A stretch of DNA of 64,000 nucleotides from a bacterium (lineage in GTDB: Bacteria > UBA8248): NCBI GenBank assembly GCA_965213625.1, contig CBDBZU010000004.1, forward strand, positions 832,001 to 896,000, given 5' to 3'. The position numbers and the translations under genes were made by a program. Every line of letters begins with the position of its first letter. Positions within the stretch are counted from its first letter, which is position 1. Shown one piece after another: positions 7,864 to 48,789 of the stretch. The notes under the pieces are model-generated. The model was not told the DNA's origin. It worked only from the letters and a program-made list of their open reading frames with translations, and did not search any database.

Positions 7864-9356
7864 TCGAACAAATCCTCGAAGGCATATCGATCGCGTTCAC
7901 CTTCCAGGCGATTGGCATGGTGGCGATAGGCGTTTTCGCAGGGATAACCGTGGGCGCGATTCCCGGCTTGACCGGCGTGATGGCGACGGCGATCCTCGTG
8001 CCGTTTTCGTTCTTCATGGCGCCCACGCTGGGCATCCCATTCCTGTTGGGCGTGCACAAGGGCGCGCTCTTCGGCGGCTCGATTCCGGCGATCCTCGTCA
8101 ACACGCCCGGAACGCCGCCCGCGGCGGCCACCTGCCTCGACGGATACCCACTCGCCCAGAAGGGCGAGGCGAAAAGCGCGATCCAGATGGCGCTCTACTC
8201 CTCCACCCTGGGTGATACGTTCAGCGACATCGCGCTCATCGTCGCGGCCATCCCGCTCGCGGCGATGGCGCTCAAGTTCGGGCCGGCGGATTTCTTCGGC
8301 CTGCTCGTCATGGGACTCACCGTCATATCGAGCGTCACCGGCGCATCGGTCTCGAAGGGCATCCTCTCCGCCCTCATCGGGCTGATGTTCGGCCTGGTGG
8401 GGCTGGACGCCATCTCGGGGGCGGAGCGATTCACCTTCAGCCTGCCCACGCTCGAGGGCGGCATCGGCCTCGTGCCCCTGCTCATCGGCCTGTTCGCGGT
8501 GAGCGAGGTGCTCATCCAGGTGGAGAAGAAGGTATCCCAACTCGCCGAAAAGCCGCCGACCTCCCACTTAAGGGGCGGGCGCTCGCTCAAGATGGAGGAG
8601 TTCACCGCTTCGGGCCGGACGATCTTCCGCTCCTCCATCATCGGCACCATAGTCGGCGCGATTCCGGGGACGGGCTCTTCCATCGCCACCTTCATCGGCT
8701 ACGGCGCGGCGAAGCGGGCTTCTAAAAAACCCGAGGAATTCGGCCACGGCAGCTACGAGGGCGTGGCGGCGGCGGAGGCGGCCAACAGCGCCGTGGCGGG
8801 AGCGGACCTCATCCCCACCCTCACGCTGGGCATACCCGGCGGGGGGACGGCGGCCATCCTGATGGGGGCGTTCATCGCCCAGGGCTTAAGGCCAGGACCG
8901 TCCCTGTTCGAGGAAAACGCCACGACGATGTACGCCATCTTCGCCCTGTTGCTGATTGGAAACCCCATCATGCTCGTCCAGGGCTGGCTGCTCACGGGCA
9001 TTTTCGCCTGGGTGGTCACCATCCGGCAGTCGCTTCTGCTGCCGTGCATCATCATGTTCTGCGTGGTGGGAGGCTACATCTTCCAGAACAACCTGGGCGA
9101 CGTGGAACTCTCGCTCATCGCGGGCGTGTTCGGCTACCTTCTCCGGAAGATGAACTACCCGCTCGCGCCGCTTGTCATCGCCTACATCATCACGCCGATG
9201 GCGGAACGCTCCTTCAAGCAGGCTCTGCTGCTCTCGCAAGGCGATTACTCGGTGTTCTTCACGCGCCCGATATCGCTGTTCTTCATTCTCTTGGCCGCAC
9301 TGATTCTTTTCATGAGCATCTGGAAGCGGCCCTGGGCGACGCCCGGGGGCGAATAG
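7860..9356 (+). CDS. tctA: Tripartite tricarboxylate transporter large permease
   Basis: GAIPGLT, GGSIPAILVNTPGTP, EAANSA, PTLTLGIPG. GTG start overlaps the tctB stop. Confidence 0.93.
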   Translation: MIEQILEGISIAFTFQAIGMVAIGVFAGITVGAIPGLTGVMATAILVPFSFFMAPTLGIPFLLGVHKGALFGGSIPAILVNTPGTPPAAATCLDGYPLAQKGEAKSAIQMALYSSTLGDTFSDIALIVAAIPLAAMALKFGPADFFGLLVMGLTVISSVTGASVSKGILSALIGLMFGLVGLDAISGAERFTFSLPTLEGGIGLVPLLIGLFAVSEVLIQVEKKVSQLAEKPPTSHLRGGRSLKMEEFTASGRTIFRSSIIGTIVGAIPGTGSSIATFIGYGAAKRASKKPEEFGHGSYEGVAAAEAANSAVAGADLIPTLTLGIPGGGTAAILMGAFIAQGLRPGPSLFEENATTMYAIFALLLIGNPIMLVQGWLLTGIFAWVVTIRQSLLLPCIIMFCVVGGYIFQNNLGDVELSLIAGVFGYLLRKMNYPLAPLVIAYIITPMAERSFKQALLLSQGDYSVFFTRPISLFFILLAALILFMSIWKRPWATPGGE

Positions 9357-10521: not shown

Positions 10522-10823
10522 CCAGGTTTACAACCAGAACGACGTGCGAGGTGAGGGCATGAAAGAGACGAAAAGGCAAAGTCAAAATGGATTACGTCGA
10601 ACCCTCATTCATCAATCGCGTTTGACCCGACCGAGGAGAGAGCAAGATTCACTCCCCCCTTGAGGGGGTCGGGCTTCCCGAGGGGAAAGCCCGACAGAAG
10701 CCGAGCGTTTTTTGCGAAGGCTGATGCGGTGGGGGGTGAATCGCGTTTTATCGCTACTCCGACTCATACCCCCCCACCGGCGCGACTTCGGGCTTCGCCC
10801 TCGTCTTGCCGACTCCCCCTCAA

Positions 10824-12345
10824 AGGGGCTGTTGAAAAAGCCCCGGCATTGTGATTGGGTGTAATGACACTATCTCGCCCGAGATGGGAGTTCCCTCGAT
10901 GATAGGCAGCAAGAGGCGCGAGCAGATGGATTTGTTCGTGGCCGGTTCGCTGGAACGGCTGATCCCCGAGGATCACGTCCTGATGCGCGTGGACCACGTA
11001 CTGGATTTGAGCTGGCTACGGGAGGAGGTGGCGGATTGCTATTGCGCGGATAACGGTCGTCCGGGGATCGACCCGGAGGTGGCGCTCCGCTTGATGCTGG
11101 CGGGTATGTTGCTGGGCTACGTTCACGACCGTCGCCTGCTTCGCGAGGCGCGTGCGCACCTGGCGATCCGGTGGTTCATCGGGTACGGGCTGCACGAGGA
11201 GTTGCCGCATCATTCGAGCCTGACGCGGATACGTCAGCGCTGGGGGGAGGCACGGTTCAAGGAGATATTCCGTCGCACGGTGCAGGCTTGCCTGGAGGCG
11301 AATGTGGCGAAGGGGGAAGTGGTGCACGTGGACGCCTCGTTGATACGCGCGGACGTGAGCTGGGAGAGCCTGGCGGCGCACCACGCGGAGAAGGTGATTC
11401 AGGAGAATCCCGTCGATGATGAGGTCGGGAAGAAGGGAGGAGGCCGCGGTGGCGGGGGTCCGGTGAGCCGGACGGACCCGGACGCGCGGCTTGCGCGCAA
11501 GAGCGCGCGGGCGGGGTTCGAGCCGAGCTACAAGCAGCACGCGGCGGTGGACGATGAGCGGGGTGTTGTTCTCGACGTGTCGGTGACGGAGGGGACGCGG
11601 AACGAGCGTGAGATGATGGCGTCCCATATAGAGGCGGTAAGCGAGTTGTCGGGCCGCACGCCGGAGATGGTGACGGCGGATTCGGGGTACGCGTACTCGA
11701 AGGTTTACGGCGAATTGGAGCGGCGGGGCGTGGAAGCGCTGATACCAGCGAAGAAGGAACCCAGCCAGAGCCGTGTTCCGCTGCAGTTGTTCCACTACGA
11801 CGCGCGCAACGAGGTGGTGAAGTGTCCGGGAGGCAAGACGCTGCGCCCCCGGCAGGCGACGGAGCGGGGGCGCTCCTATGTATCGAAGACGCGGGATTGC
11901 GCGGGCTGCGCGCTCAGGCCCGATTGTCTGTCGAAGTCGCGCACGAGCAGGACGGTGTTGATTCCGCACGCGTATCCGGCGCTGTTGCGCGCGCGTCGGC
12001 GGCATGCGCGCTGGGGGGAGGAGGAGAAGCGTCTCTATGGCCGCCACCGTTGGCGCTCGGAGGGCTACCACGGCGAGGCGAAGAGCCGGCACGGACTGGG
12101 GCGGGCGGTGCGCCGGGGCCTTGCGAACATGCGGATCCAGTCCTACCTGACGGCGATAGCGGTGAACCTCAAGCGGCTGGCCGCCGCTTTTGCGGCGCGT
12201 ATATTCGCCTTGTGGACGGCCTGTGCCGCCCGGAGACGCCGGCTGCGCGCACATGGCGCCCTCACGCGCCGATTGGGCTGCCTCCCCGCCGCCGCGTGAG
12301 CCGCCAAAACGCCCGCTTCCAACACCGGGTTTTTCAACAGACCCC
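10824..12345 (+). mobile_element. IS1182-family insertion sequence, copy 2 (complete, 1,522 bp, 4-bp TCAA target duplication)
   Basis: IRL AGGGGCTGTTGAAAAA and IRR TTTTTCAACAGACCCC. TCAA occurs at both 10820-10823 and 12346-12349. Confidence 0.95.
10851..12299 (+). CDS. IS1182-family DDE transposase (possible start at 10899)
   Basis: IPEDH..GRPGIDP, PHHSSLT, VDASLIRAD, SRTDPDA, ADSGY, C-x2-C-x4-C, R-x2-SE..GEAK..HGL, NLKRL. Confidence 0.95.
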   Translation: MIGCNDTISPEMGVPSMIGSKRREQMDLFVAGSLERLIPEDHVLMRVDHVLDLSWLREEVADCYCADNGRPGIDPEVALRLMLAGMLLGYVHDRRLLREARAHLAIRWFIGYGLHEELPHHSSLTRIRQRWGEARFKEIFRRTVQACLEANVAKGEVVHVDASLIRADVSWESLAAHHAEKVIQENPVDDEVGKKGGGRGGGGPVSRTDPDARLARKSARAGFEPSYKQHAAVDDERGVVLDVSVTEGTRNEREMMASHIEAVSELSGRTPEMVTADSGYAYSKVYGELERRGVEALIPAKKEPSQSRVPLQLFHYDARNEVVKCPGGKTLRPRQATERGRSYVSKTRDCAGCALRPDCLSKSRTSRTVLIPHAYPALLRARRRHARWGEEEKRLYGRHRWRSEGYHGEAKSRHGLGRAVRRGLANMRIQSYLTAIAVNLKRLAAAFAARIFALWTACAARRRRLRAHGALTRRLGCLPAAA

Positions 12346-12461
12346 TCAAGGGGGGAGTGATTTTCCTCTTTCGTTGATTGTGCCTTACCCTCAAGGGGCT
12401 GTTAAAAAACCCGGTTCTGGCAGCGAGCGCGTACCCCTCGTCATTTATGGCTACCGAAACG

Positions 12462-22401: not shown

Positions 22402-22555
22402 TCGGGAGTTGTTGAAATGCTCCTATTTAGGGGGTAAAGGCGATACCCCTCGACGTGGGGGTGGAAGATAAGCCCCCCCTGACAGAGTCTGTTGAAAAAG
22501 TCCCATGGTGTGATTTTGGTTGCGGACACGATTTTCTAGTTCATTCCCCCCTTGA

Positions 22556-24077
22556 GGGGTCTGTTGAAAAACCCGGTGTTGGAAGCGGGCGTTTTGGCGG
22601 CTCACGCGGCGGCGGGGAGGCAGCCCAATCGGCGCGTGAGGGCGCCATGTGCGCGCAGCCGGCGTCTCCGGGCGGCACAGGCCGTCCACAAGGCGAATAT
22701 ACGCGCCGCAAAAGCGGCGGCCAGCCGCTTGAGGTTCACCGCTATCGCCGTCAGGTAGGACTGGATCCGCATGTTCGCAAGGCCCCGGCGCACCGCCCGC
22801 CCCAGTCCGTGCCGGCTCTTCGCCTCGCCGTGGTAGCCCTCCGAGCGCCAACGGTGGCGGCCATAGAGACGCTTCTCCTCCTCCCCCCAGCGCGCATGCC
22901 ACCGACGCGCGCGCAACAGCGCCGGATACGCGTGCGGAATCAACACCGTCCTGCTCGTGCGCGACTTCGACAGACAATCGGGCCTGAGCGCGCAGCCCGC
23001 GCAATCCCGCGTCTTCGATACATAGGAGCGCCCCCGCTCCGTCGCCTGCCGGGGGCGCAGCGTCTTGCCTCCCGGACACTTCACCACCTCGTTGCGCGCG
23101 TCGTAGTGGAACAACTGCAGCGGAACACGGCTCTGGCTGGGTTCCTTCTTCGCTGGTATCAGCGCTTCCACGCCCCGCCGCTCCAATTCGCCATAAACCT
23201 TCGAGTACGCGTACCCCGAATCCGCCGTCACCATCTCCGGCGTGCGGCCCGACAACTCGCTTACCGCCTCTATATGGGACGCCATCATCTCACGCTCGTT
23301 CCGCGTCCCCTCCGTCACCGACACGTCGAGAACAACACCCCGCTCATCGTCCACCGCCGCGTGCTGCTTGTAGCTCGGCTCGAACCCCGCCCGCGCGCTC
23401 TTGCGCGCAAGCCGCGCGTCCGGGTCCGTCCGGCTCACCGGACCCCCGCCACCGCGGCCTCCTCCCTTCTTCCCGACCTCATCATCGACGGGATTCTCCT
23501 GAATCACCTTCTCCGCGTGGTGCGCCGCCAGGCTCTCCCAGCTCACGTCCGCGCGTATCAACGAGGCGTCCACGTGCACCACTTCCCCCTTCGCCACATT
23601 CGCCTCCAGGCAAGCCTGCACCGTGCGACGGAATATCTCCTTGAACCGTGCCTCCCCCCAGCGCTGACGTATCCGCGTCAGGCTCGAATGATGCGGCAAC
23701 TCCTCGTGCAGCCCGTACCCGATGAACCACCGGATCGCCAGGTGCGCACGCGCCTCGCGAAGCAGGCGACGGTCGTGAACGTAGCCCAGCAACATACCCG
23801 CCAGCATCAAGCGGAGCGCCACCTCCGGGTCGATCCCCGGACGACCGTTATCCGCGCAATAGCAATCCGCCACCTCCTCCCGTAGCCAGCTCAAATCCAG
23901 TACGTGGTCCACGCGCATCAGGACGTGATCCTCGGGGATCAGCCGTTCCAGCGAACCGGCCACGAACAAATCCATCTGCTCGCGCCTCTTGCTGCCTATC
24001 ATCGAGGGAACTCCCATCTCGGGCGAGATAGTGTCATTACACCCAATCACAATGCCGGGGCTTTTTCAACAGCCCCT
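22556..24077 (-). mobile_element. IS1182-family insertion sequence, copy 3 (complete, 1,522 bp, TTGA/TCAA duplication)
   Basis: Reverse complement of copy 2 with very few SNPs. TTGA occurs at both 22552-22555 and 24078-24081. Confidence 0.95.
22602..24050 (-). CDS. IS1182-family DDE transposase
   Basis: 482 aa, identical to copy 2 except R to W in RARR(R/W)HARW. Confidence 0.95.
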   Translation of the reverse strand: MIGCNDTISPEMGVPSMIGSKRREQMDLFVAGSLERLIPEDHVLMRVDHVLDLSWLREEVADCYCADNGRPGIDPEVALRLMLAGMLLGYVHDRRLLREARAHLAIRWFIGYGLHEELPHHSSLTRIRQRWGEARFKEIFRRTVQACLEANVAKGEVVHVDASLIRADVSWESLAAHHAEKVIQENPVDDEVGKKGGGRGGGGPVSRTDPDARLARKSARAGFEPSYKQHAAVDDERGVVLDVSVTEGTRNEREMMASHIEAVSELSGRTPEMVTADSGYAYSKVYGELERRGVEALIPAKKEPSQSRVPLQLFHYDARNEVVKCPGGKTLRPRQATERGRSYVSKTRDCAGCALRPDCLSKSRTSRTVLIPHAYPALLRARRWHARWGEEEKRLYGRHRWRSEGYHGEAKSRHGLGRAVRRGLANMRIQSYLTAIAVNLKRLAAAFAARIFALWTACAARRRRLRAHGALTRRLGCLPAAA

Positions 24078-24342
24078 TTGAGGGGGAGTCGGCAAGACGA
24101 GGGCGAAGCCCGAAGTCGCGCCGGTGGGGGGGTATGAGTCGGAGTAGCGATAAAACGCGATTCACCCCCCACCGAGTCAGCCTTCACCTGTCGGTTCGGC
24201 TTCCTCGACTCCCCCTCAAGGGGGGAGTGATTTCTTTTCAACGAGGGTATTTTCAAGGCAGCTAATCTGTAGGATTTTTTCAACAACCCCGCATGCGACC
24301 CCTACAACAAGAACGGCTCTCTACGAGACGGTACGTTTTGTT

Positions 24343-29137: not shown

Positions 29138-29288
29138 GGAATAAGCTCCTGTTAATAAGGTGTTTACGATAGTTGACGCTTCGGGGGTATTCTAACGGCA
29201 TAGACTCGCATTCTGTCCAGCGCCCATGTATATTTGTGCGGCAAAACAGGCGTATCCCTCACTTCAGAAAGTAGTTCGGAGGCATTTC

Positions 29289-30323
29289 GTGAGCGCATCT
29301 CCGGTGGATGAATTCGAGTATTTCTTCGATAAAGCCTGGTCGGACGGCCTGCCGGTCATCCCCCCGACGGAAGAGCGCATGGGCCTCATGCTGGCGGGGA
29401 CGGGCCGCGACCCGGATGAAGTCATCGGCGATGTGCCCCCATTGCTGGCGCAGGCTGACGTTCGGACCATCGCAGTTCATGCCGTCATGGCCGGATGCAA
29501 ACCGGCGTATATGCCCGTCCTCATCGGAGCCGTGGAAGCCATTCTGGAGGAAAAATTCAACGTGGGCGGCGTGCAGGCGACGCTCTCCTGCGCGGCTCCC
29601 CTGCTGATCGTGAACGGCCCTTACGCCAGGGATATCGGCCTGCACGGCGGGCTGGGCTGCTTCGGCCCCGGAAACAGGGCGAACGCGACGATTGGCCGCG
29701 CCATCAGGCTACTGCTCCTCAACATAGGCGGCGGAATTCCGGGCATCACCTCGATGAGCACGTTCTCGCAACCGGGCAGGTTCACGTATTGCATCGCCGA
29801 GAATGAAGCGGAAAGCCCCTGGGAGTCTCACGCTCAGACGAATGGTTTCGATGCGCAGGACAACGTCGTCACGGCCGTGCATGTGGAAGGCCCCGTCATG
29901 TCCTGGGATGACGTGAGCGACGACCCGGAATGCATGTTGCCCTCCATCGCGGACACCATGTCGCATCTGGGTTCGTGGAACTGCTGGGCCAGCACCGATT
30001 TGGTGGTGGCGATGAGCCCGCAGCAGGCCGCGATTTGCGCAAAGAGGGGGTATTCAAAGGCGGATGTCCATGGGCGTCTTTGCGAAATCGCAGGCCGTAC
30101 GGTGGGCGAACTCAAAACGGGCGGGCATTTCCGGGAAAATCGCATCAGGGATTTTCCGATCCCCGTCGATCTGGATGATGACGATGCGTTCGTTCCGACG
30201 ATTAAAGAGGCCCGGAGACTGCTCTTGATCGTGGCGGGCGGAATTCCGGGGCCGATGACGGCCGTGATGCATGGCTGGAACGGCAGTAGCCGCTCGGTTT
30301 CCCGCGCATTTCAATCGTCATGA
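29289..30323 (+). CDS. Uncharacterised ~340-aa protein, paralogue 1 of 4 (family usually seen beside UGSC selenoproteins)
   Basis: WSDGLPVIPPT, AVMAGC, NGPY, GCFGPG.RANATIGRA, AENEAESPW. GGAGG RBS before the GTG at 29289. Confidence 0.85.
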   Translation: MSASPVDEFEYFFDKAWSDGLPVIPPTEERMGLMLAGTGRDPDEVIGDVPPLLAQADVRTIAVHAVMAGCKPAYMPVLIGAVEAILEEKFNVGGVQATLSCAAPLLIVNGPYARDIGLHGGLGCFGPGNRANATIGRAIRLLLLNIGGGIPGITSMSTFSQPGRFTYCIAENEAESPWESHAQTNGFDAQDNVVTAVHVEGPVMSWDDVSDDPECMLPSIADTMSHLGSWNCWASTDLVVAMSPQQAAICAKRGYSKADVHGRLCEIAGRTVGELKTGGHFRENRIRDFPIPVDLDDDDAFVPTIKEARRLLLIVAGGIPGPMTAVMHGWNGSSRSVSRAFQSS

Positions 30324-30346
30324 TATCCACTTCTTTCAATGGGTGA

Positions 30347-31381
30347 ATGGCTTTGAGTGAACTTCAGGATGAATTCGAGTTTTTCCTCGAGAAACCCTGG
30401 TCGGACGGATTGCCCGTCGTCACCCCGACCGAAGAACGCATCGAGCGTATGCTCTCGGGCACGAAGAAAAGTCCGACTGAATTCATAGGCCTGGTACCTC
30501 CCGCCATGGGTGAGGCAACGGTCCATAACGTGGCGGTTCATGCGGTTATGGCCGGCTGTAAACCCGAGTACCTGCCGGTCGTTCTCGGCGCCACTTCGCT
30601 TATGCTTCGCGATGAATTCAACACGAACGGCGTGCAGGGCACGATGCACGGCGTGGCGCCCCTCATGATTGTAAACGGCCCCTATTCCGAGCAAATCGGG
30701 GTTCACGGAGGAAATGGCTGCTTTGGCCCCGGATTCAGGTCCAACGCTTCCATTGGCCGTGCCATTCGCCTGATTTTAATGAACCTCGGCGGGGGTATTC
30801 CGGGTGTTTCTTCGATGACGATTTTCGGCACGCCGCTGCGCTATACCGCGTGCGTAACGGAGAACCTTCAGTTTCATCCCTGGGAGACGCTCGCTGAATC
30901 CAGAGGATACGGATCGGATGAAAATGTAATCACCATGGCCATGGTGGAAAGCCCGCGCCTGACCTTCGATGACGTCAGCGAGGAGCCCGAGCGCCTGCTC
31001 CGGGGAATCGCCGATGCGATGACGGGCCTGGGCTCCTGGAACATGCACGCTCCCAGGACCGATATGGTTGTCGCCATGAATCCCCAGCATGCGAAAATTT
31101 GCTCCGAGGGCGGCCTCACGCGGGCGGACGTGCATCGGCGATTGTGTGAGCTGGCCGGCCACAAAGTGAAGGAGTTGAAAGGAGGCGGCAACTGGCGTCG
31201 CGAGCGCGCGCTGGATATGTATATTCATGTGGACCCCGATGATGATGAGTTTTTTGTTCCCGTCATCAAGGACCCCCGTGATCTGCATTTGATTGTCGCG
31301 GGCGGCTGGGGTTCGGGCAGCGCGGTATGCCATGGGTGGAGCGGCGGCAGCCGGGCCGTTCATGGGGCCTATGAGGTTTAG
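30347..31381 (+). CDS. Uncharacterised ~340-aa protein, paralogue 2 of 4
   Basis: Same motifs as paralogue 1. Confidence 0.85.
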   Translation: MALSELQDEFEFFLEKPWSDGLPVVTPTEERIERMLSGTKKSPTEFIGLVPPAMGEATVHNVAVHAVMAGCKPEYLPVVLGATSLMLRDEFNTNGVQGTMHGVAPLMIVNGPYSEQIGVHGGNGCFGPGFRSNASIGRAIRLILMNLGGGIPGVSSMTIFGTPLRYTACVTENLQFHPWETLAESRGYGSDENVITMAMVESPRLTFDDVSEEPERLLRGIADAMTGLGSWNMHAPRTDMVVAMNPQHAKICSEGGLTRADVHRRLCELAGHKVKELKGGGNWRRERALDMYIHVDPDDDEFFVPVIKDPRDLHLIVAGGWGSGSAVCHGWSGGSRAVHGAYEV

Positions 31382-31422
31382 CGCCGGAATCTCCACGACA
31401 GTCAGAGTGGTAACAGATCCCT

Positions 31423-32439
31423 ATGGATGAATTTGAATTTTTCTTTCAAAAATCCTGGTCGGATGGTCTGCCGGTAATCCCCCCAACCCAGGAACGGATG
31501 GCCACCATGCTCTCGGGCACCAGACTCGGGGCTTCGGAGGTCATTGGATTGGTGCCGCCCCTCATGGGAGAGGCCAGCGTTGAAGCTGTTGCCGCGCACG
31601 CCGTGATGGCGGGCTGTGAACCATCGTATTTGCCTGTCGTTCTTGCAGGACTCAGAGCGCTCCTTGCACCGAAACTCAACTTGAACGGCGTGCAGGGCAC
31701 CATGCACAGTGCAGCCCCTTTGATCATCGTGAATGGTCCATATGCGAAAATAATCGGTCTGCACGGCGGAACGGGGTGCTTTGGTCCGGGTTTTCGGGCG
31801 AATGCGACGATTGGCCGCGCCATCCGGCTTATGCTCATGAACCTGGGCGGCGGTGTGCCGGTTTCCGCCTCGATGAGCACGTTCGGCTCTCCTGCCAGAT
31901 ATACGTTTTGCATTGCCGAAAATGAAGCGGAAAGCCCTTGGGAGCCATTGTCCGTCACGAGAGGATTTCATCAGGATGACGATGTTGTAACCGCCGTGAT
32001 GACGGAGGCGCCTCAAGGATATATCGATGATTATTCAAAAGAGCCGGAATCTTTTTTTGTGGGTTTGGCGGATAAAATATCCACCCTGGGTTCACTGAAT
32101 ATCTGGCTGAAGACCCAGGTTGCTGTTGCTTTGGGTCCCGATCATGCGCACATGTGCGCGGATGCGGGTCTGGATAAAAAAGACGTACATCGCCGAATTA
32201 TGAAGCTTGCACGCAGGCCCTTGGGAGAGTTGAAAAAATCTGGTTATTGGCGTGAGGAGATGATTGCCAAGTGGACATTTGATCTCGACCTGCAGGATGA
32301 TTCTTTTATGGTACCGGCGATTAAGGATGAGGACGATCTGGTACTTCTCGTCGCAGGGGGTACGCCCGGGCCGGTGACGGCCGTCATGCCCGGTTGGGTG
32401 GATGGCAGCGAGGCGGTTTCAATTGATTATGAACCTTAA
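31423..32439 (+). CDS. Uncharacterised ~340-aa protein, paralogue 3 of 4
   Basis: Same motifs as paralogue 1. Confidence 0.85.
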   Translation: MDEFEFFFQKSWSDGLPVIPPTQERMATMLSGTRLGASEVIGLVPPLMGEASVEAVAAHAVMAGCEPSYLPVVLAGLRALLAPKLNLNGVQGTMHSAAPLIIVNGPYAKIIGLHGGTGCFGPGFRANATIGRAIRLMLMNLGGGVPVSASMSTFGSPARYTFCIAENEAESPWEPLSVTRGFHQDDDVVTAVMTEAPQGYIDDYSKEPESFFVGLADKISTLGSLNIWLKTQVAVALGPDHAHMCADAGLDKKDVHRRIMKLARRPLGELKKSGYWREEMIAKWTFDLDLQDDSFMVPAIKDEDDLVLLVAGGTPGPVTAVMPGWVDGSEAVSIDYEP

Positions 32440-32474
32440 GCCTTTCTTTTAGGCTTGGTTTTGAGGATTAGCGA

Positions 32475-33494
32475 ATGGATGAGTTTGAGTTTTTCTTTGA
32501 TAAAGAATGGTCGGATGGCCTACCCGTCGTGACCCCGACAGAAGAGCGAATCGGTTTGATGCTCTCGGGTACGACAAAAGAGCCGGGCGAAGTACTCGGC
32601 TGCGTGGCTCCGGCGGGCGCGGAACTCAGCGTACAAGGAGTGGCGGCCCACGCTGTTATGGCGGGCTGTAAGCCCGGGTATATGCCGGTGCTGATTGCCG
32701 GGCTGGAAGCGCTTTTAGATGAACGTTTTAACGTAAATCTGATTCAGGCTACGACGAGCGCGGGCGCTCCATTTCTTTTGGTCAATGGCCCCTATGCCAA
32801 AGAGGTCGGGCTGCATGGCGGTGTGGGCTGCATGGGTCCCGGCTTTCGCGCGAACCTGACCATTGGCCGCGCTGTGCGGCTCGTCATGATGAATGTGGGA
32901 GGCGGCATTCCCGGAATCACATGTCTCGGCGGTTTTGGAGGTCCCTGGCGAAGCACTTTTTGCATCATGGAGAACGAGGAGGAATCCCCTTGGGAGTCGT
33001 ATGCGGAATCCAAAGGATTTTCACAGAGCGATAACGTGGTGACCATGATTCCCCTCGAAGGGCCGGTGCAGGTATGGGACGATGCGAGTCTGACTCCTGA
33101 ACGGCTCCTGACGACGGTTGCCGACATGATGTCCGCATTGGGCGGTCCCAATATGTATCGACAAGCGGATATGGCGGTTGTCCTGGGTGCGCAACATGCG
33201 CATATTTGCGCTGACGCCGGGCTGACTCGCAGTGATGTCCATAAAAAATTACTGGAAACGGGTGGGCGCACAATAGGGGAGATAAAGCGCGGCGGCATCT
33301 GGCGAGGCGAGAAAGGCGCGGTTCGATGGCCATTTCCCGTGGACGTGAATGATGATGATTTTTTTGTGCCTGCGGTAGGAGATCCCGACGATCTTCATTT
33401 GATTGTCGCAGGTAGCAGGGGCTCACCTTCCAGCATGGTCATGCACGGAATTACCGTGGCGTGTCGTGCTGTGTCAAAAAGATTTGATGTGTGA
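32475..33494 (+). CDS. Uncharacterised ~340-aa protein, paralogue 4 of 4
   Basis: Same motifs as paralogue 1; most divergent in the variable loops. Confidence 0.85.
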   Translation: MDEFEFFFDKEWSDGLPVVTPTEERIGLMLSGTTKEPGEVLGCVAPAGAELSVQGVAAHAVMAGCKPGYMPVLIAGLEALLDERFNVNLIQATTSAGAPFLLVNGPYAKEVGLHGGVGCMGPGFRANLTIGRAVRLVMMNVGGGIPGITCLGGFGGPWRSTFCIMENEEESPWESYAESKGFSQSDNVVTMIPLEGPVQVWDDASLTPERLLTTVADMMSALGGPNMYRQADMAVVLGAQHAHICADAGLTRSDVHKKLLETGGRTIGEIKRGGIWRGEKGAVRWPFPVDVNDDDFFVPAVGDPDDLHLIVAGSRGSPSSMVMHGITVACRAVSKRFDV

Positions 33495-33665: not shown

Positions 33666-35927
33666 TTAATGGCCGTTGCTATTGCCGTTTTTCTTTATGA
33701 CCGCCCGGCAGACACGCTCGGGCGTGATGGGAAGGTCGTAGACTTCCGTGCCTATCGCATCATTGATGGCGAGGGCGACGGCTGCCGGCGCGTTATTGCA
33801 TGGGGGTTCTCCGACGCCGCGTGCGCCATATGGGCCTGCGCCCTCTCCACATTCAAGAACAACAGACTCAAACTCACCGATATCCGAGGAAGTGGGAATC
33901 AGATACTCGTGAAAGCTTTGTGATCGGCAGTCTCCTTCCACCATGGTGATTTCTTCATGCAGCGCATAGCCAATCCCCATCACCGCGCCGCCTTCGAATT
34001 GCCCTTCCACGCTTTGAGGATTCAGCGCTCGCCCGACATCATGGGAGGCGATGTGCTTCAAGAGATTCACTTCGCCGGTTTCGATATCGACCTCCACTTC
34101 GCTCGCATGAACGCCAAATGTGTAGTCCGACCATCCGCCCATACCGTTCATGTATCGCTGCGGGTTCTCGTATTCATGTCCCGGCATGTTGTAGCCATGG
34201 GTGCAATGCAGGGCTTCACCCATTTTTTTGGCTTCCCCAGCCGCAGCACCGATGCCAACCCTTCTCTCGGGAGCGGAGGCCACCCATGCCTCCCCACTTC
34301 CAACACGGATGTCCTCTTCAGAAGCTTCGAGCAACGAGGCGGCGCCTTTGGTCACGGCTTTCCGAACCTCGTCTGCGGCAAGTTGAACGGCATGCCCCGC
34401 CATGAGTGTCTGGCGAGAACCTGCAGTAATGCCTGAGAGTGGTGTAGTAGCGGAATCGGACAAACGGGTGGAAACCTGATCGAGCCTGAGCCCGAGGGTT
34501 TCAGCCGTTATGCTTTGAAGCGTAGCGCCCTGGCCGGCGCCTATGTCAGGCGCGCTTACACGTACTACGGCGCTGCCATCCGGCTCAAGGTGAACCGCCG
34601 CATTCGCATCGTCATTCGGCCTTCCGTAGCCGGTGATGTTCGCGGCCGCCGCCCGGCCGATACGTTTGCCCGGACCTGGTTCTGTGGGTTCACCCAGGGC
34701 CTGTAGCGCGCTGTCGAGGCATCCTTCCAGGTTCGGTTCGTAAGGTATCTTCTGTCCGGTCGGCAGTTCCTGTCCTTTCTGGATGAAATTTTTCCGCCTG
34801 AATTCGTACTTGTCCAACCCTAGGGCATCTGCAACCAGGTTCATTTGGGTCTCATATGCGAAGCAGACCTGGTTTGATCCGACACCGCGCATCGCGTTGG
34901 TGATGGGATTGTTCGTGAGGTAGCCGTGCGCACGAATTTTTGCGTTAGGGACATCGTAAGGGCCGGCGGCGATGCACATTGCGCCTAGGAGGAACAAGTT
35001 GGATTTATACGGATAGGCGCCAGCGTCTCCTACGATGTCCGCCTGTACGGCCAGGATTTTCCCGTCCTTGGTCGCTCCTGTTTTGTATTTCATATAGAAA
35101 GGGTGCTTTTTCGAGGTGTTTCGGATGCCGTGTTCGCGGCCCAACACCATAACGGCGGGCCTTTGCGTATGCCAGGTGAGCAGCGCCAGATAAGGTTCTA
35201 CGGTCAGCATGCCCTTGGCGCCGAACCCGCCGCCGACGTAAGTGCCGAGATGGCGGACGCGGCTATGCGAGATTCCTAAAATCGCTGCAATGGCGCGGTA
35301 GTATTCGATAAGCTGTGTGCCGACGCGGATGGTGATGACGCCGTCTTCTTCCATCCAGGAAGTACCGGAGGCCGGTTCCAGGAAGGCGTGTTCGGCGAGT
35401 TGCGTAGTGTATGTTTTCTCAATCACCACGTCGGCTTCGTCAAACGCTGTCTTCAAGTCTCCGCGGGTAACCTCAAAATCACACGCTTGTCGTTTTTCAG
35501 CGCTTGTTTCATCGTGACGCGTTGTCCACACGCCCTCTTCCGCCTCGATTTCCACTTCAATGGCCGCTATCGCGGCATCAAGCGCTTCTCTGTTTTCGGC
35601 TCCTACGATGGCGAGAGCGTCTCCCGTGAATTCAATTTTATCTTCCACCAGAACAGGCTGATGGGGCAGACCCGGCGTGCCGGAGCCGAATCGCGCGTTT
35701 GTGCCCGGAATATCCTTTGCAGTCAGAATGGCGGCAACGCCCGGGATTTTTTCGGCTTTTGAAGTGTCGAGTTTTTTCAGGCGGCCGACCGGGATGGGTG
35801 TAAACAATACGCCGCACTGCAGAGCCCCTGCAGGAACTGCATCTTCTCCGTAGGGCATAGAGCCATCCGCTTTCGGAATCGCGTCGTATCGAACATTCGA
35901 CTTGCCGATGATATCGTAATCGGCCAT
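33666..35927 (-). CDS. Xanthine-dehydrogenase-family molybdopterin-binding large subunit
   Basis: HAFLEP, YVGGGFGAK, AMRGVG, DIGAGQG, AGSR, DVGRALNP..VEGQFEGG, ARGVGEP. AAGGAG RBS before MADYD. Confidence 0.93.
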   Translation of the reverse strand: MADYDIIGKSNVRYDAIPKADGSMPYGEDAVPAGALQCGVLFTPIPVGRLKKLDTSKAEKIPGVAAILTAKDIPGTNARFGSGTPGLPHQPVLVEDKIEFTGDALAIVGAENREALDAAIAAIEVEIEAEEGVWTTRHDETSAEKRQACDFEVTRGDLKTAFDEADVVIEKTYTTQLAEHAFLEPASGTSWMEEDGVITIRVGTQLIEYYRAIAAILGISHSRVRHLGTYVGGGFGAKGMLTVEPYLALLTWHTQRPAVMVLGREHGIRNTSKKHPFYMKYKTGATKDGKILAVQADIVGDAGAYPYKSNLFLLGAMCIAAGPYDVPNAKIRAHGYLTNNPITNAMRGVGSNQVCFAYETQMNLVADALGLDKYEFRRKNFIQKGQELPTGQKIPYEPNLEGCLDSALQALGEPTEPGPGKRIGRAAAANITGYGRPNDDANAAVHLEPDGSAVVRVSAPDIGAGQGATLQSITAETLGLRLDQVSTRLSDSATTPLSGITAGSRQTLMAGHAVQLAADEVRKAVTKGAASLLEASEEDIRVGSGEAWVASAPERRVGIGAAAGEAKKMGEALHCTHGYNMPGHEYENPQRYMNGMGGWSDYTFGVHASEVEVDIETGEVNLLKHIASHDVGRALNPQSVEGQFEGGAVMGIGYALHEEITMVEGDCRSQSFHEYLIPTSSDIGEFESVVLECGEGAGPYGARGVGEPPCNNAPAAVALAINDAIGTEVYDLPITPERVCRAVIKKNGNSNGH

Positions 35928-36120
35928 ATGTCTGCTCCTTAAGGTAAGAGGATATCCGTGAATTAGACTTGATTCTGCCAAATTTCGGCGCAACTGAGAA
36001 GCGGACAATTCATCATTTGTTTTTTCATCTAAAATTGATTGTGTTGATATCGTAGACAAGGAATAAATTGCGGGATATGATTTGGCCACGGTTGAATTCA
36101 CATATCAATTGGAGAAAACC

Positions 36121-36651
36121 ATGGCGAACGGAATGGGATTCATTGATCCGACGGCGGGAGGGTCGGCCGCGCGAATCGAACTTGCGCAAAGGCCCGGCGA
36201 TCTTTCGGGTAAGGTGGTGGGGCTCCTCGACAACACCAAAGAACAAGCGGATATCATTTTGGAAACCTTGGGGAATGCCCTCCGTGAGCAATACGACGTG
36301 GCCAGAGTCATTTCGATGCGAAAAGAGCATTACTCGAAGCCTGCCACTGATGAAATGATCGAAGAAATGGCCCAGGAGGTGGATGTGGCGATAGCCGCAT
36401 TGGGAGGCTGAGGCTCCTGCACGTTGTGCAGTGTGCACGACACGGTTGAATTTGAAAAACGGGGCATTCCTTCAACGACCATTATTACCGAGGCGTTCAA
36501 GAACGCGGCGGACTTTCAATTCCGTGGCAAGGGCATGGAAGGGCATCCTTATATTCAGTTGCCTCATCCGGTCAGTAATTTACAGCCTGATGAAATGAGA
36601 GACACGACGCTGAAGTTTGTCGAAGAAGTAGCCGGCCACCTGAAAAGCTGA
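36121..36651 (+). CDS. UGSC-family selenoprotein, 176 aa, Sec97 (TGA at 36409-36411)
   Basis: ORFs 36082-36411 and 36424-36651 are in one frame and read ALGG-TGA-GSCTLCSVHD..EKRGIP..LPHP. A hairpin follows the TGA. Confidence 0.88.
36423..36441 (+). promoter_or_regulatory. Candidate bacterial SECIS element
   Basis: GTTGTGCA-GTG-TGCACGAC 8-bp stem beginning 11 nt after the UGA, with a G-initiated loop. Confidence 0.6.
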
Positions 36652-37532: not shown

Positions 37533-37549
37533 GTTCATTGTGGCGGGAT

Positions 37550-38251
37550 ATGAATAGAAACCTCCTCATCACACATAATGAATCCCAAGTCGCGAGCATT
37601 ACCGTGAATCGGCCGGAAGCGCGAAATGCTTTCAACACGGCATTGATGGAAGCCATGTGTAAGGAAATGGAGGATATTAAAAAGACGCCGGACATTAAAG
37701 TCCTTATCGTGACGGGCGCGGGAAGCTCTTTTTCTTCGGGACGCGATCTCAAGGAAAGCGCCACCCATACGAAAGAACAAGTGAAGCGATTCATGATTTT
37801 GGGCGAGCGGTGGAGCACGGCTCTTCGTGAACTACCCATTCCGACAATAGCAGCGGTGAATGGACCCGCTTTCGGATGGGGGATGGTGTTGATGCTCTCT
37901 TGCGATATTCGTGTTGCAGTGGACGCCGCCGTTTTGGGTTATCCGGAAACTGCGTTGGGAGTATTTCCGGGAGGAGACGCCACAGTTCGTCTGACGCGTC
38001 AGATTTTTGTTCCATTCGTGAAAGATTTAGTGCTCACCGGCAGAAGATTTGATGCGCGAGAGGGATATCGCTTAGGATTGGTGAATCGCATCACATCGCA
38101 AAGAGACCTGATGAAGGAAACTCGCGCTCTGGCGAATAAAATTGCGCAACATCCGCCGGAGAGATTAAGAGAGTTGAAATCAAAGTTTTTGAAAATCGAA
38201 GCGATGCCGCGTTTTGGCCATTTGTCGGTAGCCGAGAAATTCGATCGATGA
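37550..38251 (+). CDS. Enoyl-CoA hydratase/isomerase family protein (second, degenerate paralogue)
   Basis: NRPEARNA, FSSGRDLKES, GWGMV (first Glu absent), YPETALG. Confidence 0.88.
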   Translation: MNRNLLITHNESQVASITVNRPEARNAFNTALMEAMCKEMEDIKKTPDIKVLIVTGAGSSFSSGRDLKESATHTKEQVKRFMILGERWSTALRELPIPTIAAVNGPAFGWGMVLMLSCDIRVAVDAAVLGYPETALGVFPGGDATVRLTRQIFVPFVKDLVLTGRRFDAREGYRLGLVNRITSQRDLMKETRALANKIAQHPPERLRELKSKFLKIEAMPRFGHLSVAEKFDR

Positions 38252-38631
38252 AAGTCAGGGAGTGCTTTTTGCAGGCTGTAGCGATCGTTGGAGTGGAGGA
38301 AGACGCCAGAGAAACCTGGGCGGCAATGAATAGGATAAACGCGCCTTGGGCGGCGGTTTTTGATGGTATGCACCTGATTGGCGTTGTAAGCAAAATAGAC
38401 CTCGATGCGTTTCTTCGTGTGCCCGAGGTATTTCAAGAAGTGGGAGAGATTGCCAAAACGGATATGCCTTCGAGGAGAGGGATATCGCTGTCCCCGAACA
38501 CGGATTTGAACGAGGCTGTTATTCGGCTTGAGCTCGCGGGAGCGGATGCCGCTTTTGTCGAAGGCGTCGGCAGGCCGCATGGCGTCATGGCGATGGAAGC
38601 AGCCAATCACGCATTGTCTCGTTCTTCTTGA
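38248..38631 (+). CDS. CBS-domain-like protein
   Basis: MKVRE..; V-x-D-x3-LIGVVSKIDL; LSPNTDLNEAV..GRPHGVM resembles a CBS pair. Confidence 0.55.
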   Translation: MKVRECFLQAVAIVGVEEDARETWAAMNRINAPWAAVFDGMHLIGVVSKIDLDAFLRVPEVFQEVGEIAKTDMPSRRGISLSPNTDLNEAVIRLELAGADAAFVEGVGRPHGVMAMEAANHALSRSS

Positions 38632-39926: not shown

Positions 39927-40478
39927 ATGACGCGCCGGGTGGATAAATGGCGGCAGGGTGAATTGTTCCAGAAAGACGGTGAATCTCTGGAAAATCATGT
40001 TGCCGAATGGCTCCAGAAAGTGCGTGCGGAATTCTCCGTGTTTGTATCGGATAAAGGTATTGTGGAAATTAGAATGTTGAATGGCGTGGAAAAGCCTCTC
40101 GTGGCGGATCATGCGAGTGAGCAATCAACGCCGTTGAGTCGTCGAGCCTCAAAAGAGATAAAAGAGTATCTGGAGGGAACGCGAAAAAGTTTCGATTTGA
40201 AGACAGACCTCTCCTCCCTCACGCCTTTCATGATCAAAGTATTAATTGAGACGGAAAATATTCCTTATGGCGAGACGCGTTCTTACGGCTGGGTGGCGAA
40301 TCAAATTGGAAACCCGAAAGCTTCGCGTGCCGTAGGCCAGGCGTTACATAGAAATCCCGTTCCTCTTGTAATACCATGACACCGCGTTATCGCGAGCTCG
40401 GGCGAGCTCGGTGGGTTCGCAAGCAGCGTTTCTTTGAAGGTGGCGCTCTTGGCTCATGAGATGTATCACAAAAATTAG
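39927..40478 (+). CDS. ogt: Methylated-DNA--protein-cysteine methyltransferase with catalytic selenocysteine (Sec151, TGA at 40377-40379), 183 aa
   Basis: IPYGETRSY, RAVGQAL, NPVPLVIP-TGA-HRVIASSGELGGF..K..LLAHE. The TGA sits exactly at the Cys of the PCHR motif. Confidence 0.88.
40393..40410 (+). promoter_or_regulatory. Candidate bacterial SECIS element
   Basis: CGAGCTC-GGGC-GAGCTCG hairpin beginning 13 nt after the UGA. Confidence 0.6.
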
Positions 40479-47606: not shown

Positions 47607-48789
47607 GTGGCGCAAGAAACGGCGGATGCCGTCGTCATTGGTGGTGGTGTGATGGGATGTTCCATCGCCTATCAGTTGGCGAAACGAGGTTTTGGAAAAA
47701 TTATCCTTTGTGAACGCGATGGCATCGCATCTGGTTCCACGGGCGGGTCTTCGGCGCTTTTTCGCATGCACTATTCAAATACAAGCACCATTCAGATGGC
47801 TTGGCGGTCTCTGTTGGCGTTTGAGGGGTTCGAGGAATATTCCGAGGGCAGACAAGCTGGATTCATGCAAACCGGATATTTGGTGCTGGCGAATGATTCT
47901 CTTCGTAATGGCGTGAAAAAAATGTAGAACTTGCACAATCCCTCGGAGTAGAAACGTACTGGATTAAAAAAGAGGAAATTTCTCGACACACGCCCCATGG
48001 GCCCAACTGGAAGATTTAGTGGGTGCGGCTTACGAACCGAGAAGCGGGTATGCTGATCCACATGGAGTGACATCTGGATTTGCGGAAGGTGCGAAAAAAT
48101 ATGGTGCGCAAATACGACAGAATTGTTCTGTGATTGGGGTCAAATTCGATAGCTCAGGTTTGGTATGCGTTGAGACCTTTCGGGATGTTATCGATACTCC
48201 GGTTGTCGTGAACGCTTCCGGGGCTTGGGTGAATAAGGTGGCCGCTTTCAGCGGACACCAATTTCCGGCGGAGGCCATCCGAGAACAAGATACGGTTTTT
48301 TATGCCGTGGGCAGAGATGGCGAGAGGGTTGAATTTGTCGTCTATGATGGTCCGACGCGTTTGTACTACCGCCCGGAGGGGCGAGATTTACTCCTCATAG
48401 GTCGCGACAATATAGAACCCGAGTATGTCGACCCGGATGATTTCAACAAAAAAGGAGACATGGATTTCGTGCTCGATGTTCTGGAGAGGATGCAAAAGCG
48501 TTGGCCCTACTTTGAAAATGCGAAACTATTCCGTGGCTGGGGTTGCTTGTACTGCATTACGCCGGATTGGATGCCCATTCTTGATCGTTACCCCGAAGTG
48601 CCGGGTTACTACATTTGCACAGGGATGAGCGGCCATGGCTTCAAGTTGGCGCCCGCTGTGGGAGAGATGATGGCGGAGTTGATCATGACCGGAAGTTGTG
48701 AGGAGCCGGATATCAGCGACTATCGCCTGGCTCGTTTTGATGAAGGCGATTTGATGCAAAGTGTTTTCGGAACAGGGTTTCAGGGCTGA
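47607..48789 (+). pseudogene. FAD-dependent oxidoreductase (DAO/sarcosine oxidase beta-like), interrupted by two frameshifts
   Basis: GGGVMG dinucleotide-binding N-terminus (47607-47927) and C-terminal YEP..GYADP, TPD..PI, GMSGHGFK (48019-48789) lie in different frames. They are bridged by a third frame at 47924-47990. Confidence 0.8.

Follow-up and report, generated by a model that had tools for sequence, protein, structure and literature searches.

The 64,000-nucleotide stretch analyzed here (contig CBDBZU010000004.1, positions 832,001 to 896,000 of the forward strand; "the window" below always means this whole stretch) carries a gene of the UGSC family of selenoproteins at positions 36121 to 36651. 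Very probably, the gene contains a conserved selenocysteine insertion sequence (SECIS), and its product, a UGSC protein, acts as one module of a two-part enzyme, together with proteins of a family designated "Unknown_1." Evidence comes from the column of the putative selenocysteine (Sec) codon in homologous genes, from covariation in the hairpin downstream of that codon, from gene fusion and gene adjacency between the two families, and from a structural model of a natural fusion protein. The elements of the UGSC gene are listed here with the evidence for each (nt, nucleotides; HMM, hidden Markov model).

36121..36651, + strand: UGSC-family selenoprotein gene, 176 codons plus a TGA stop (translation, HMM matches, and fold model)
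36111..36114, + strand: Shine-Dalgarno-like GGAG, 6 nt 5' of the ATG at 36121 (seen directly in the sequence)
36409..36411, + strand: putative Sec codon UGA, residue 97, in the motif G-G-U-G-S-C (TGA/Cys column conservation and fold model)
36423..36441, + strand: candidate bacterial SECIS hairpin, with arms at 36423-36430 and 36434-36441 and the loop GUG at 36431-36433

The UGSC gene and its in-frame UGA codon

Two open reading frames (ORFs) at 36082..36411 and 36424..36651 lie in a common frame, and translation from the ATG at 36121 yields 176 codons with a single internal TGA, at codon 97. This arrangement bears out the proposal, made in a preliminary description of this DNA, that the two short ORFs are a single gene. 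The read-through context is ...VDVAIAALGG-U-GSCTLCSVHDTVEFEKRGIPST...LPHP..., in which the family motif of the window protein is U97-G98-S99-C100. The terminal stop of the frame (36649-36651) is also TGA, which implies that TGA doubles as an ordinary stop codon in the host. In a word-indexed search that returned 1040 relatives, most of the best 120 were predicted proteins of exactly 96 residues, covering 55% of the query. Their length indicates that public gene calls are cut at UGA-97 and is consistent with a start at ATG 36121; the practical lesson is that public predictions of the UGSC gene are mostly truncated at 96 amino acids (aa).

An exhaustive HMMER search of cluster representatives led to the identification of 1277 UGSC relatives, and 114 full-length homologues (150 to 300 aa) from the best 150 of these were aligned. 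The column of U97 holds Cys in 109 of them, Ser in 2, Gly in 1, and a gap in 2. At the following positions, G98 is conserved in 110 sequences, S99 in 86, and C100 in 105, and the third Cys of the window protein (C103) is kept in just 29 and does not characterize the family. The Cys-form homologues are continuous ORFs. A scan of loci with one genome per species gave 79 UGSC loci with 81 gene copies, originating from Nitrospinota (identity up to 99%, which places the window in that lineage), Chloroflexota/SAR202, Tectomicrobia, Betaproteobacteria/Burkholderiales, and a few other groups; TGA stands at the Sec column in all 81 copies. These comparisons show, at the level of aligned sequences, that UGA-97 occupies a conserved Sec/Cys column of the UGSC family. 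The preliminary description had named full-length homologues with Cys or TGA at this column as support for a selenoprotein, and both forms were recovered in the above numbers; together with the hairpin covariation described below, they uphold the selenoprotein reading.

On profile evidence, the window gene is a genuine member of a known, curated selenoprotein family. Its product scores 148.9 bits against NCBIfam NF041046, "UGSC family (seleno)protein" (cut-off, 125 bits; profile positions 2-146 of 147), and 173.2 bits against Pfam PF24696, "UGSC" (cut-off, 25 bits; profile positions 3-170 of 172). If the word "hidden" in the preliminary description is taken to mean new, it does not apply to the gene, since the family is curated under both accessions and has been published since 2007-2008. 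It corresponds to the "UGSC-containing protein" of Zhang and Gladyshev (PMC1976440, PMC2398784), which was introduced in 2007 as "a selenoprotein of unknown function" (PMC1976440). Counts from 37 samples of the Global Ocean Sampling survey were 255 for the Sec form and 21 for the Cys form, and UGSC ranked with the three to five selenoprotein families that are most abundant in ocean metagenomes (PMC2398784, 2008). The family is still listed without a function in the available text of two reviews (PMC9312934 and PMC13188914), and a literature search on its names and accessions found no characterized function in the portions of the publications that were accessible. The window protein resembles the published family in its above-cut-off HMM scores, in the U-G-S-C motif at the Sec/Cys column, in the Sec-rich and Cys-poor pattern of its relatives, and in having the same fusion partner (i.e., Unknown_1). 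Nothing that defines the family differs in this Nitrospinota-like copy (loci 99% identical); its partner genes are 2.6 kb away, whereas those of other family members are adjacent or fused.

The hairpin (GUUGUGCA-GUG-UGCACGAC) has an 8-bp stem that begins exactly 11 nt 3' of the UGA. Its position and pairing are those given in the preliminary description, and the stem is conserved across gene copies. A spacing of 11 nt is that of the minimal SECIS of fdhF; the literature search found no paper in support of this value. The isolated hairpin has a folding energy of -8.8 kcal/mol, and 1 of 200 shuffled sequences folds equally well. In longer contexts the folding energy is not significant (z = 0.31 for 66 nt and z = -0.17 for 37 nt), and thermodynamics alone is therefore weak evidence for a SECIS. 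The comparative evidence was obtained from an alignment of 82 sequences (57 distinct), in which all 456 of 456 cells of the 8-bp stem are paired. Compensatory changes occur at two stem pairs, from G-C to A-U in three rows and from C-G to G-C in one row, and the observed covariation score was reached by none of 500 shuffles. Third-codon positions within the stem, including the fourfold-degenerate sites of Thr101 and Val105, are near-fixed (77 to 82 of 82 sequences), and those just outside the stem vary (major allele in 25 to 70 of 82). In this alignment, comparative support for the hairpin is much stronger than expected by chance.

Published criteria for bacterial SECIS elements (PMC13188914) include a loop of 3-9 nt, an upper stem of 4-16 bp, a G in the first two loop positions, a UGA-to-loop distance of 16-37 nt, and a minimum free energy of -7.5 kcal/mol or lower. 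All four measured values of the UGSC hairpin fall within these ranges (3-nt loop, 8 bp, 19 nt from UGA to loop, and -8.8 kcal/mol), and its loop opens with G and then U, as in the bSECISearch consensus. Unlike the bacterial SECIS consensus and the SECIS of Escherichia coli fdhF, its stem has no bulged U. The hairpin fits a model in which it would recruit SelB and Sec-tRNA, such that the ribosome would read on to the TGA stop at 36649.

A second selenoprotein gene is present in the same window, 3' of the UGSC gene.

39927-40478, + strand: methylated-DNA-protein-cysteine methyltransferase (MGMT) selenoprotein gene, with TGA at 40377-40379 in place of the catalytic Cys (IP-U-HRV)

Reading through this TGA extends the match to PF01035 from profile positions 1-51 to positions 1-79 of 81. 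Among the homologous MGMT copies in the fetched loci, 25 of 26 carry TGA and 1 carries TGC, and the MGMT gene is followed by a hairpin of its own (40402-40420; 8 bp, GGU loop, -9.5 kcal/mol). MGMT is a known selenoprotein family (PMC13188914, PMC1976440). The presence of a second window gene with TGA at a catalytic Cys lends independent support to the Sec reading of the UGSC gene.

Some betaproteobacterial loci contain two UGSC genes, with second copies at 8310-8354 of locus L051 and 2952-2996 of locus L036. The divergent L051 copy reads GD-U-GSCSSWSV, i.e., a Cys-form context that carries Sec. Its hairpin is intact with three changed pairs, including a compensatory change from C-G to G-C and two one-sided changes that still allow pairing.

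Association with the Unknown_1 family

Upstream of the UGSC gene, the window contains four tandem genes of the partner family (29226-33494), whose products share 53-56% mutual identity.

29226..30323, + strand: partner-family (Unknown_1) paralogue 1, 365 aa, with homology to the C-terminal domain in UGSC fusion proteins (E ~1e-43 to 1e-71)
30347..31381, + strand: partner-family paralogue 2, 344 aa, without a match in Pfam or NCBIfam and with homology to the C-terminal domain in UGSC fusion proteins
31423..32439, + strand: partner-family paralogue 3, 338 aa, the modeled copy, which shares 37% identity with the C-terminal domain of fusion protein P0392
32475..33494, + strand: partner-family paralogue 4, 339 aa, closest of the four to the UGSC gene (2.6 kb upstream of it)

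None of the four paralogues matches a Pfam model (E ≤ 1) or an NCBIfam model (E ≤ 0.01). The best 150 listed of the 1277 UGSC representatives include nine long homologues (345-657 aa), and in eight of these the partner domain forms the C-terminal part (seven full fusions and one partial fusion; E values of 1e-39 to 1e-72 and 31-47% identity). A search for longer UGSC proteins yielded 113 proteins of 485-576 aa, annotated with PF24696 only. The partner family carries the motif AxNAVMAGCxPEYxPV...ATTH...VNGP, which is that of "Unknown_1" in the UGSC/Unknown_1 fusion (PMC2398784, Fig. S1A); the fusion of UGSC with the partner has thus already been published. In 104 of the 113 fusions, the Sec region reads GDCGTSTS, in which the Sec-equivalent Cys is invariant and the second Cys is gone. 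This pattern argues for residue 97 as the working residue and for C100 as an accessory in split forms.

The two families are also linked by gene order. A partner gene was detected by tblastn within 6 kb of the UGSC gene in 68 of the 79 loci, and in 41 loci it is directly adjacent and on the same strand, upstream of UGSC in betaproteobacterial records and downstream in Chloroflexota records. The description of the UGSC protein as "stand-alone" is not supported: UGSC has a conserved partner family, either joined to it by fusion or encoded nearby, and the window itself contains four copies of that family.

A further gene with a conserved position relative to UGSC is that for the molybdopterin-binding subunit of a xanthine dehydrogenase (XDH)/aldehyde-oxidase-family enzyme (33666-35929, - strand). 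It has no Fe-S or flavin adenine dinucleotide (FAD) subunit gene beside it and is divergent from the UGSC gene, with a spacer of 191 nt; this pairing is kept in 22 loci, mostly the closest Nitrospinota records. In NCBIfam it comes closest, below cut-off in each case, to pucD, the 4-hydroxybenzoyl-CoA reductase alpha subunit, and a selenium-dependent XDH.

An AlphaFold2 model of the UGSC protein, built from 108 aligned sequences, is a single compact domain (predicted local distance difference test [pLDDT], 96.8; predicted template modeling score [pTM], 0.89). Five parallel strands alternate with helices, and residue 97 is located between the strand at 89-95 and the helix at 98-113. The product is accordingly predicted to be a single flavodoxin-like alpha/beta domain with Sec located where strand 3 ends and helix 3 starts. 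A Foldseek search of the model against the PDB returned just flavodoxin-like proteins with template modeling (TM) scores of 0.4-0.5 (MdaB, flavodoxins, and receiver domains), the best being MdaB (2amj; E = 9e-5, TM ~0.5); no thioredoxin and no GrdB or PrdB chain was among the listed matches. The modeled protein shares a parallel beta-alpha sandwich with these proteins (MdaB 2amj/2b3d, flavodoxins, and receiver domains) and is unlike them in its low TM scores, in its identity of 9-18%, and in matching no flavin-binding family by sequence. The resemblance, as judged from the model, is at the fold level only. Sequence and profile searches of the PDB with the UGSC and partner families gave nothing below an E value of 0.1, and a natural Cys homologue of UGSC gave no usable match in the ESM Atlas. 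A thioredoxin fold had been guessed for the family ("likely Trx-like fold"; PMC2398784). This assignment was not retained, the model being a flavodoxin-like sandwich and no thioredoxin occurring among the listed matches.

Paralogue 3 of the partner family was modeled with a pLDDT of 92.4 and a pTM of 0.92, and a fold search of the PDB with this model found no convincing solved relative. The best hit, a class-I fumarate hydratase subunit (7xky_A), was rejected as no real match (TM 0.30-0.33; root mean square deviation, 11.8). An NCBIfam scan of 128 partner-family members revealed no recurring family except UGSC, in seven fusions. In the ESM Atlas, the partner hit unannotated clusters only, and the nearest named cluster has PF24696 in 16% of its members. 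The family has near-invariant Cys residues in the motifs AGC and C-x-x-E-N-E.

For a model of the two domains together, the natural fusion P0392 was split into residues 190-527 and 1-172, with an alignment of 117 fusions. The domain pair scored 0.69, compared with 0.00 for the best of three controls; 116 of 157 solved complexes attain the mark used for this score, as do 2 of 215 mismatched pairs. At least 94% of contacts are common to the runs, and the pLDDT of the partner is 91 or higher. Searches of solved structures revealed no comparable complex. The UGSC side of the interface includes P0392 residues 93-95 and 97-99, which correspond to U97-S99 and T101-C103 of the window protein, as well as the N-terminal tail, which is conserved, and positions close to the conserved N38, K68, and F126. 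On the partner side, it includes P0392 W203 and residues 211-217, 246-253, and 277-285 (W12, 20-26, 55-62, and 86-94 in paralogue 3). The Sec-equivalent Cys is therefore predicted by the model to sit in the inter-domain interface.

A proposed two-part selenoenzyme and its alternatives

In the mechanism that we propose, the UGSC domain would not be free-standing. It would serve a two-part enzyme as the module that carries the selenol and acts as a redox group or nucleophile, and the second part would be the Pfam-less, ~340-aa Unknown_1 family with its four window paralogues (29226-33494). Docking of the Sec loop, and of the N-terminal tail that is conserved in UGSC, would take place on a conserved partner surface that includes the motifs WSDGLPVxPPT, AxxAVMAGC, and GVQxT. 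UGSC would then supply a selenol nucleophile or reductant to the Unknown_1 active site, with Cys100 resolving the Se-S bond where the two parts are split. This logic would be analogous to that of PrdB with PrdA or GrdB with GrdE, to which UGSC is distantly similar. Genes near UGSC in the window encode two enoyl-CoA hydratases, an acyl-CoA dehydrogenase, and the XDH-family molybdopterin-binding subunit. In 19 betaproteobacterial loci, ORF clustering placed genes for TctC solute receptors directly downstream of UGSC, and other locus neighbors encode an amidase, MmgE/PrpD, and malate synthase. These neighbors, among which is also TctA, suggest the catabolism of organic acids or acyl-CoA thioesters. 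A broader proposal, which we advance tentatively as a possibility rather than an expectation, is that UGSC and Unknown_1 form a widespread, uncharacterized two-component selenoenzyme that is a cousin in logic of PrdA/PrdB and GrdE/GrdB. It would act on imported organic acids in non-fermenting Nitrospinota, SAR202, Tectomicrobia, and Betaproteobacteria, with a Sec loop that reaches into the active site of a catalytic domain without a solved structural relative.

The UGSC gene call itself is routine, in that any pipeline using NF041046 would name the gene. Its lasting interest lies in the function of an abundant selenoprotein and in the documented tie to a large, Pfam-less family without a solved relative. 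The fusion and adjacency data, the flavodoxin-like fold, the loss of the second Cys, and the interface model could make the function of UGSC testable.

GrdB and PrdB are selenoproteins of amino-acid-fermenting clostridia that carry a U-x-x-C-x-x-C motif, and their Sec subunit acts with a separate catalytic subunit (PrdA or GrdE). The preliminary description regarded the window protein as a self-sufficient, minimal GrdB/PrdB catalytic domain that would perform reductive cleavage without grd or prd partners, and part of this comparison stands. The protein matches the GrdB model TIGR01917 with an E value of 4.8e-4 (residues 76-168 on profile positions 325-414), and among 108 family members, matches at E ≤ 0.01 were obtained to TIGR01917 (30 members), GrdF (14), TIGR01918 (13), PrdB (9), and GrdH (5), with no recurring family apart from these selenoprotein-B models. 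UGSC shares with selenoprotein B (GrdB TIGR01917, GrdF, GrdH, and PrdB TIGR04483) the Cys three residues after Sec and a weak but recurrent profile similarity across the Sec-bearing segment. The statement that grd and prd genes are absent was also confirmed, a Pfam scan of 62 window ORFs revealing no grdA/C/D/E, prdA, or thioredoxin-system genes; this absence would suit a self-sufficient enzyme and also distinguishes the locus from those of GrdB and PrdB. The claim of membership, in contrast, was not sustained. The scores of the window protein are far below the cut-offs, by 30-fold or more in the comparison with GrdB (19.1 versus 602.2 bits for TIGR01917, 11.9 versus 300 bits for PrdB, and 12.9 versus 65.45 bits for a further selenoprotein-B model), and none of the 108 members matches Pfam GRDB (PF07355) at E ≤ 0.1. 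The U-x-x-C-x-x-C spacing occurs in the window protein and in the Sec clade, but its third Cys is restricted to the 29 of 114 homologues counted above and is missing from 104 of 113 fusions. UGSC has 176 aa, compared with profiles of 431 (GrdB) and 238 (PrdB) positions, and forms a flavodoxin-like domain without an evident substrate-activating group; its partner family matches no NCBIfam or Pfam model, those of the pyruvoyl subunits included; and its hosts are represented by Nitrospinota, SAR202, and Betaproteobacteria records. Autonomy is further opposed by the fusion and adjacency to a specific partner family. We therefore consider a minimal, self-sufficient reductase quite improbable, and the likeness to GrdB and PrdB appears to be a real but thin, distant relatedness of the Sec-bearing segment.

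Two other explanations bear on the function and on the reading of the gene. UGSC could be a general thiol/selenol-disulfide oxidoreductase, thioredoxin-like in function, for which the partner would be one of many clients or a mere neighbor. Such a role would be in keeping with the U-x-x-C at a helix N terminus, with the fold guess made in PMC2398784, and with the presence of one UGSC gene versus four partner paralogues in the window and a much larger partner family overall. It is nevertheless unlikely in view of the predicted fold, which has no thioredoxin among its listed PDB matches, of the loss in 104 of 113 fusions of the second Cys that a general CxxC reductase needs, and of the family-conserved residues that fall in the predicted partner interface. 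The gene might also encode no selenoprotein at all, being a pseudogene with a nonsense mutation, a pair of separate small genes, or a TGC or TGT misassembled as TGA. Gene callers do report ORFs of 96 and 75 aa, and a GGAGG is found 16 nt ahead of a TTG at 36424. This GGNGG is not conserved at the nucleotide level, however, with position -4 being A in 16, G in 19, C in 28, and T in 19 sequences. All of the 81 independent assemblies carry TGA, both halves are under purifying selection and always in frame, and the Cys-form homologues are continuous. In the fold model, a single beta-sheet is built with strands from both sides of the TGA, which excludes, as far as that model holds, two independent genes. 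Overall, we regard a gene without Sec as barely credible.

Several observations weigh against the proposed UGSC/Unknown_1 two-part selenoenzyme. No selA, selB, selC, or selD gene was found within the 64-kb window by the Pfam scan of 62 ORFs, and ARAGORN detected no tRNA or tRNA-Sec in it. Rfam contains no RNA family matching the hairpin region (E ≤ 10) or the whole window (gathering scores). According to the accessible part of PMC13188914, neither UGSC nor the partner family has a known biochemical function. In the Nitrospinota clade, the nearest partner gene is ~2.6 kb upstream of UGSC, with the opposite-strand XDH-family gene between them. No partner was found by tblastn in 11 of the 79 loci, of which L017 and L020 have full 6-kb flanks; the others are short or cut contigs, three of them with a partner fragment at the contig end. 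At least 7934 homologues of the partner family were counted, all of them without a Pfam domain, compared with 1040 UGSC relatives, and most partner genes are probably without a UGSC gene. The two parts of P0392 are just 32% and 37% identical to the window proteins and are covalently joined in nature, and the model therefore shows domain packing rather than the binding of separate window chains. The residues named for the interface do not include the near-invariant partner Cys of the AGC motif.

Other features of the window

The second enoyl-CoA hydratase ORF (37538-38631, + strand) covers just positions 3-205 of the 251-position ECH_1 profile and is followed by an overlapping ORF of 127 aa in another frame, with homologues in 13 loci. 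It is possibly a frameshifted gene or a real short form. A gene for an FAD-dependent oxidoreductase (Pfam DAO; 47607-48789, + strand) is broken over three reading frames. Its frame shifts adjoin an A7 run (~47913-47919) and an A6 run (~47967-47972), and the gene represents either a homopolymer assembly error or a pseudogene. Two copies of an insertion sequence (10716-12360 and 22541-24185) are 1645 nt each, 100% identical, and inverted relative to each other, and encode a DDE transposase (DUF772/DDE_Tnp_1). The 10.2 kb between them contains radical S-adenosylmethionine (SAM)/HemN, NFACT, YicC, guanylate kinase, CoaBC, and UDG-family genes.

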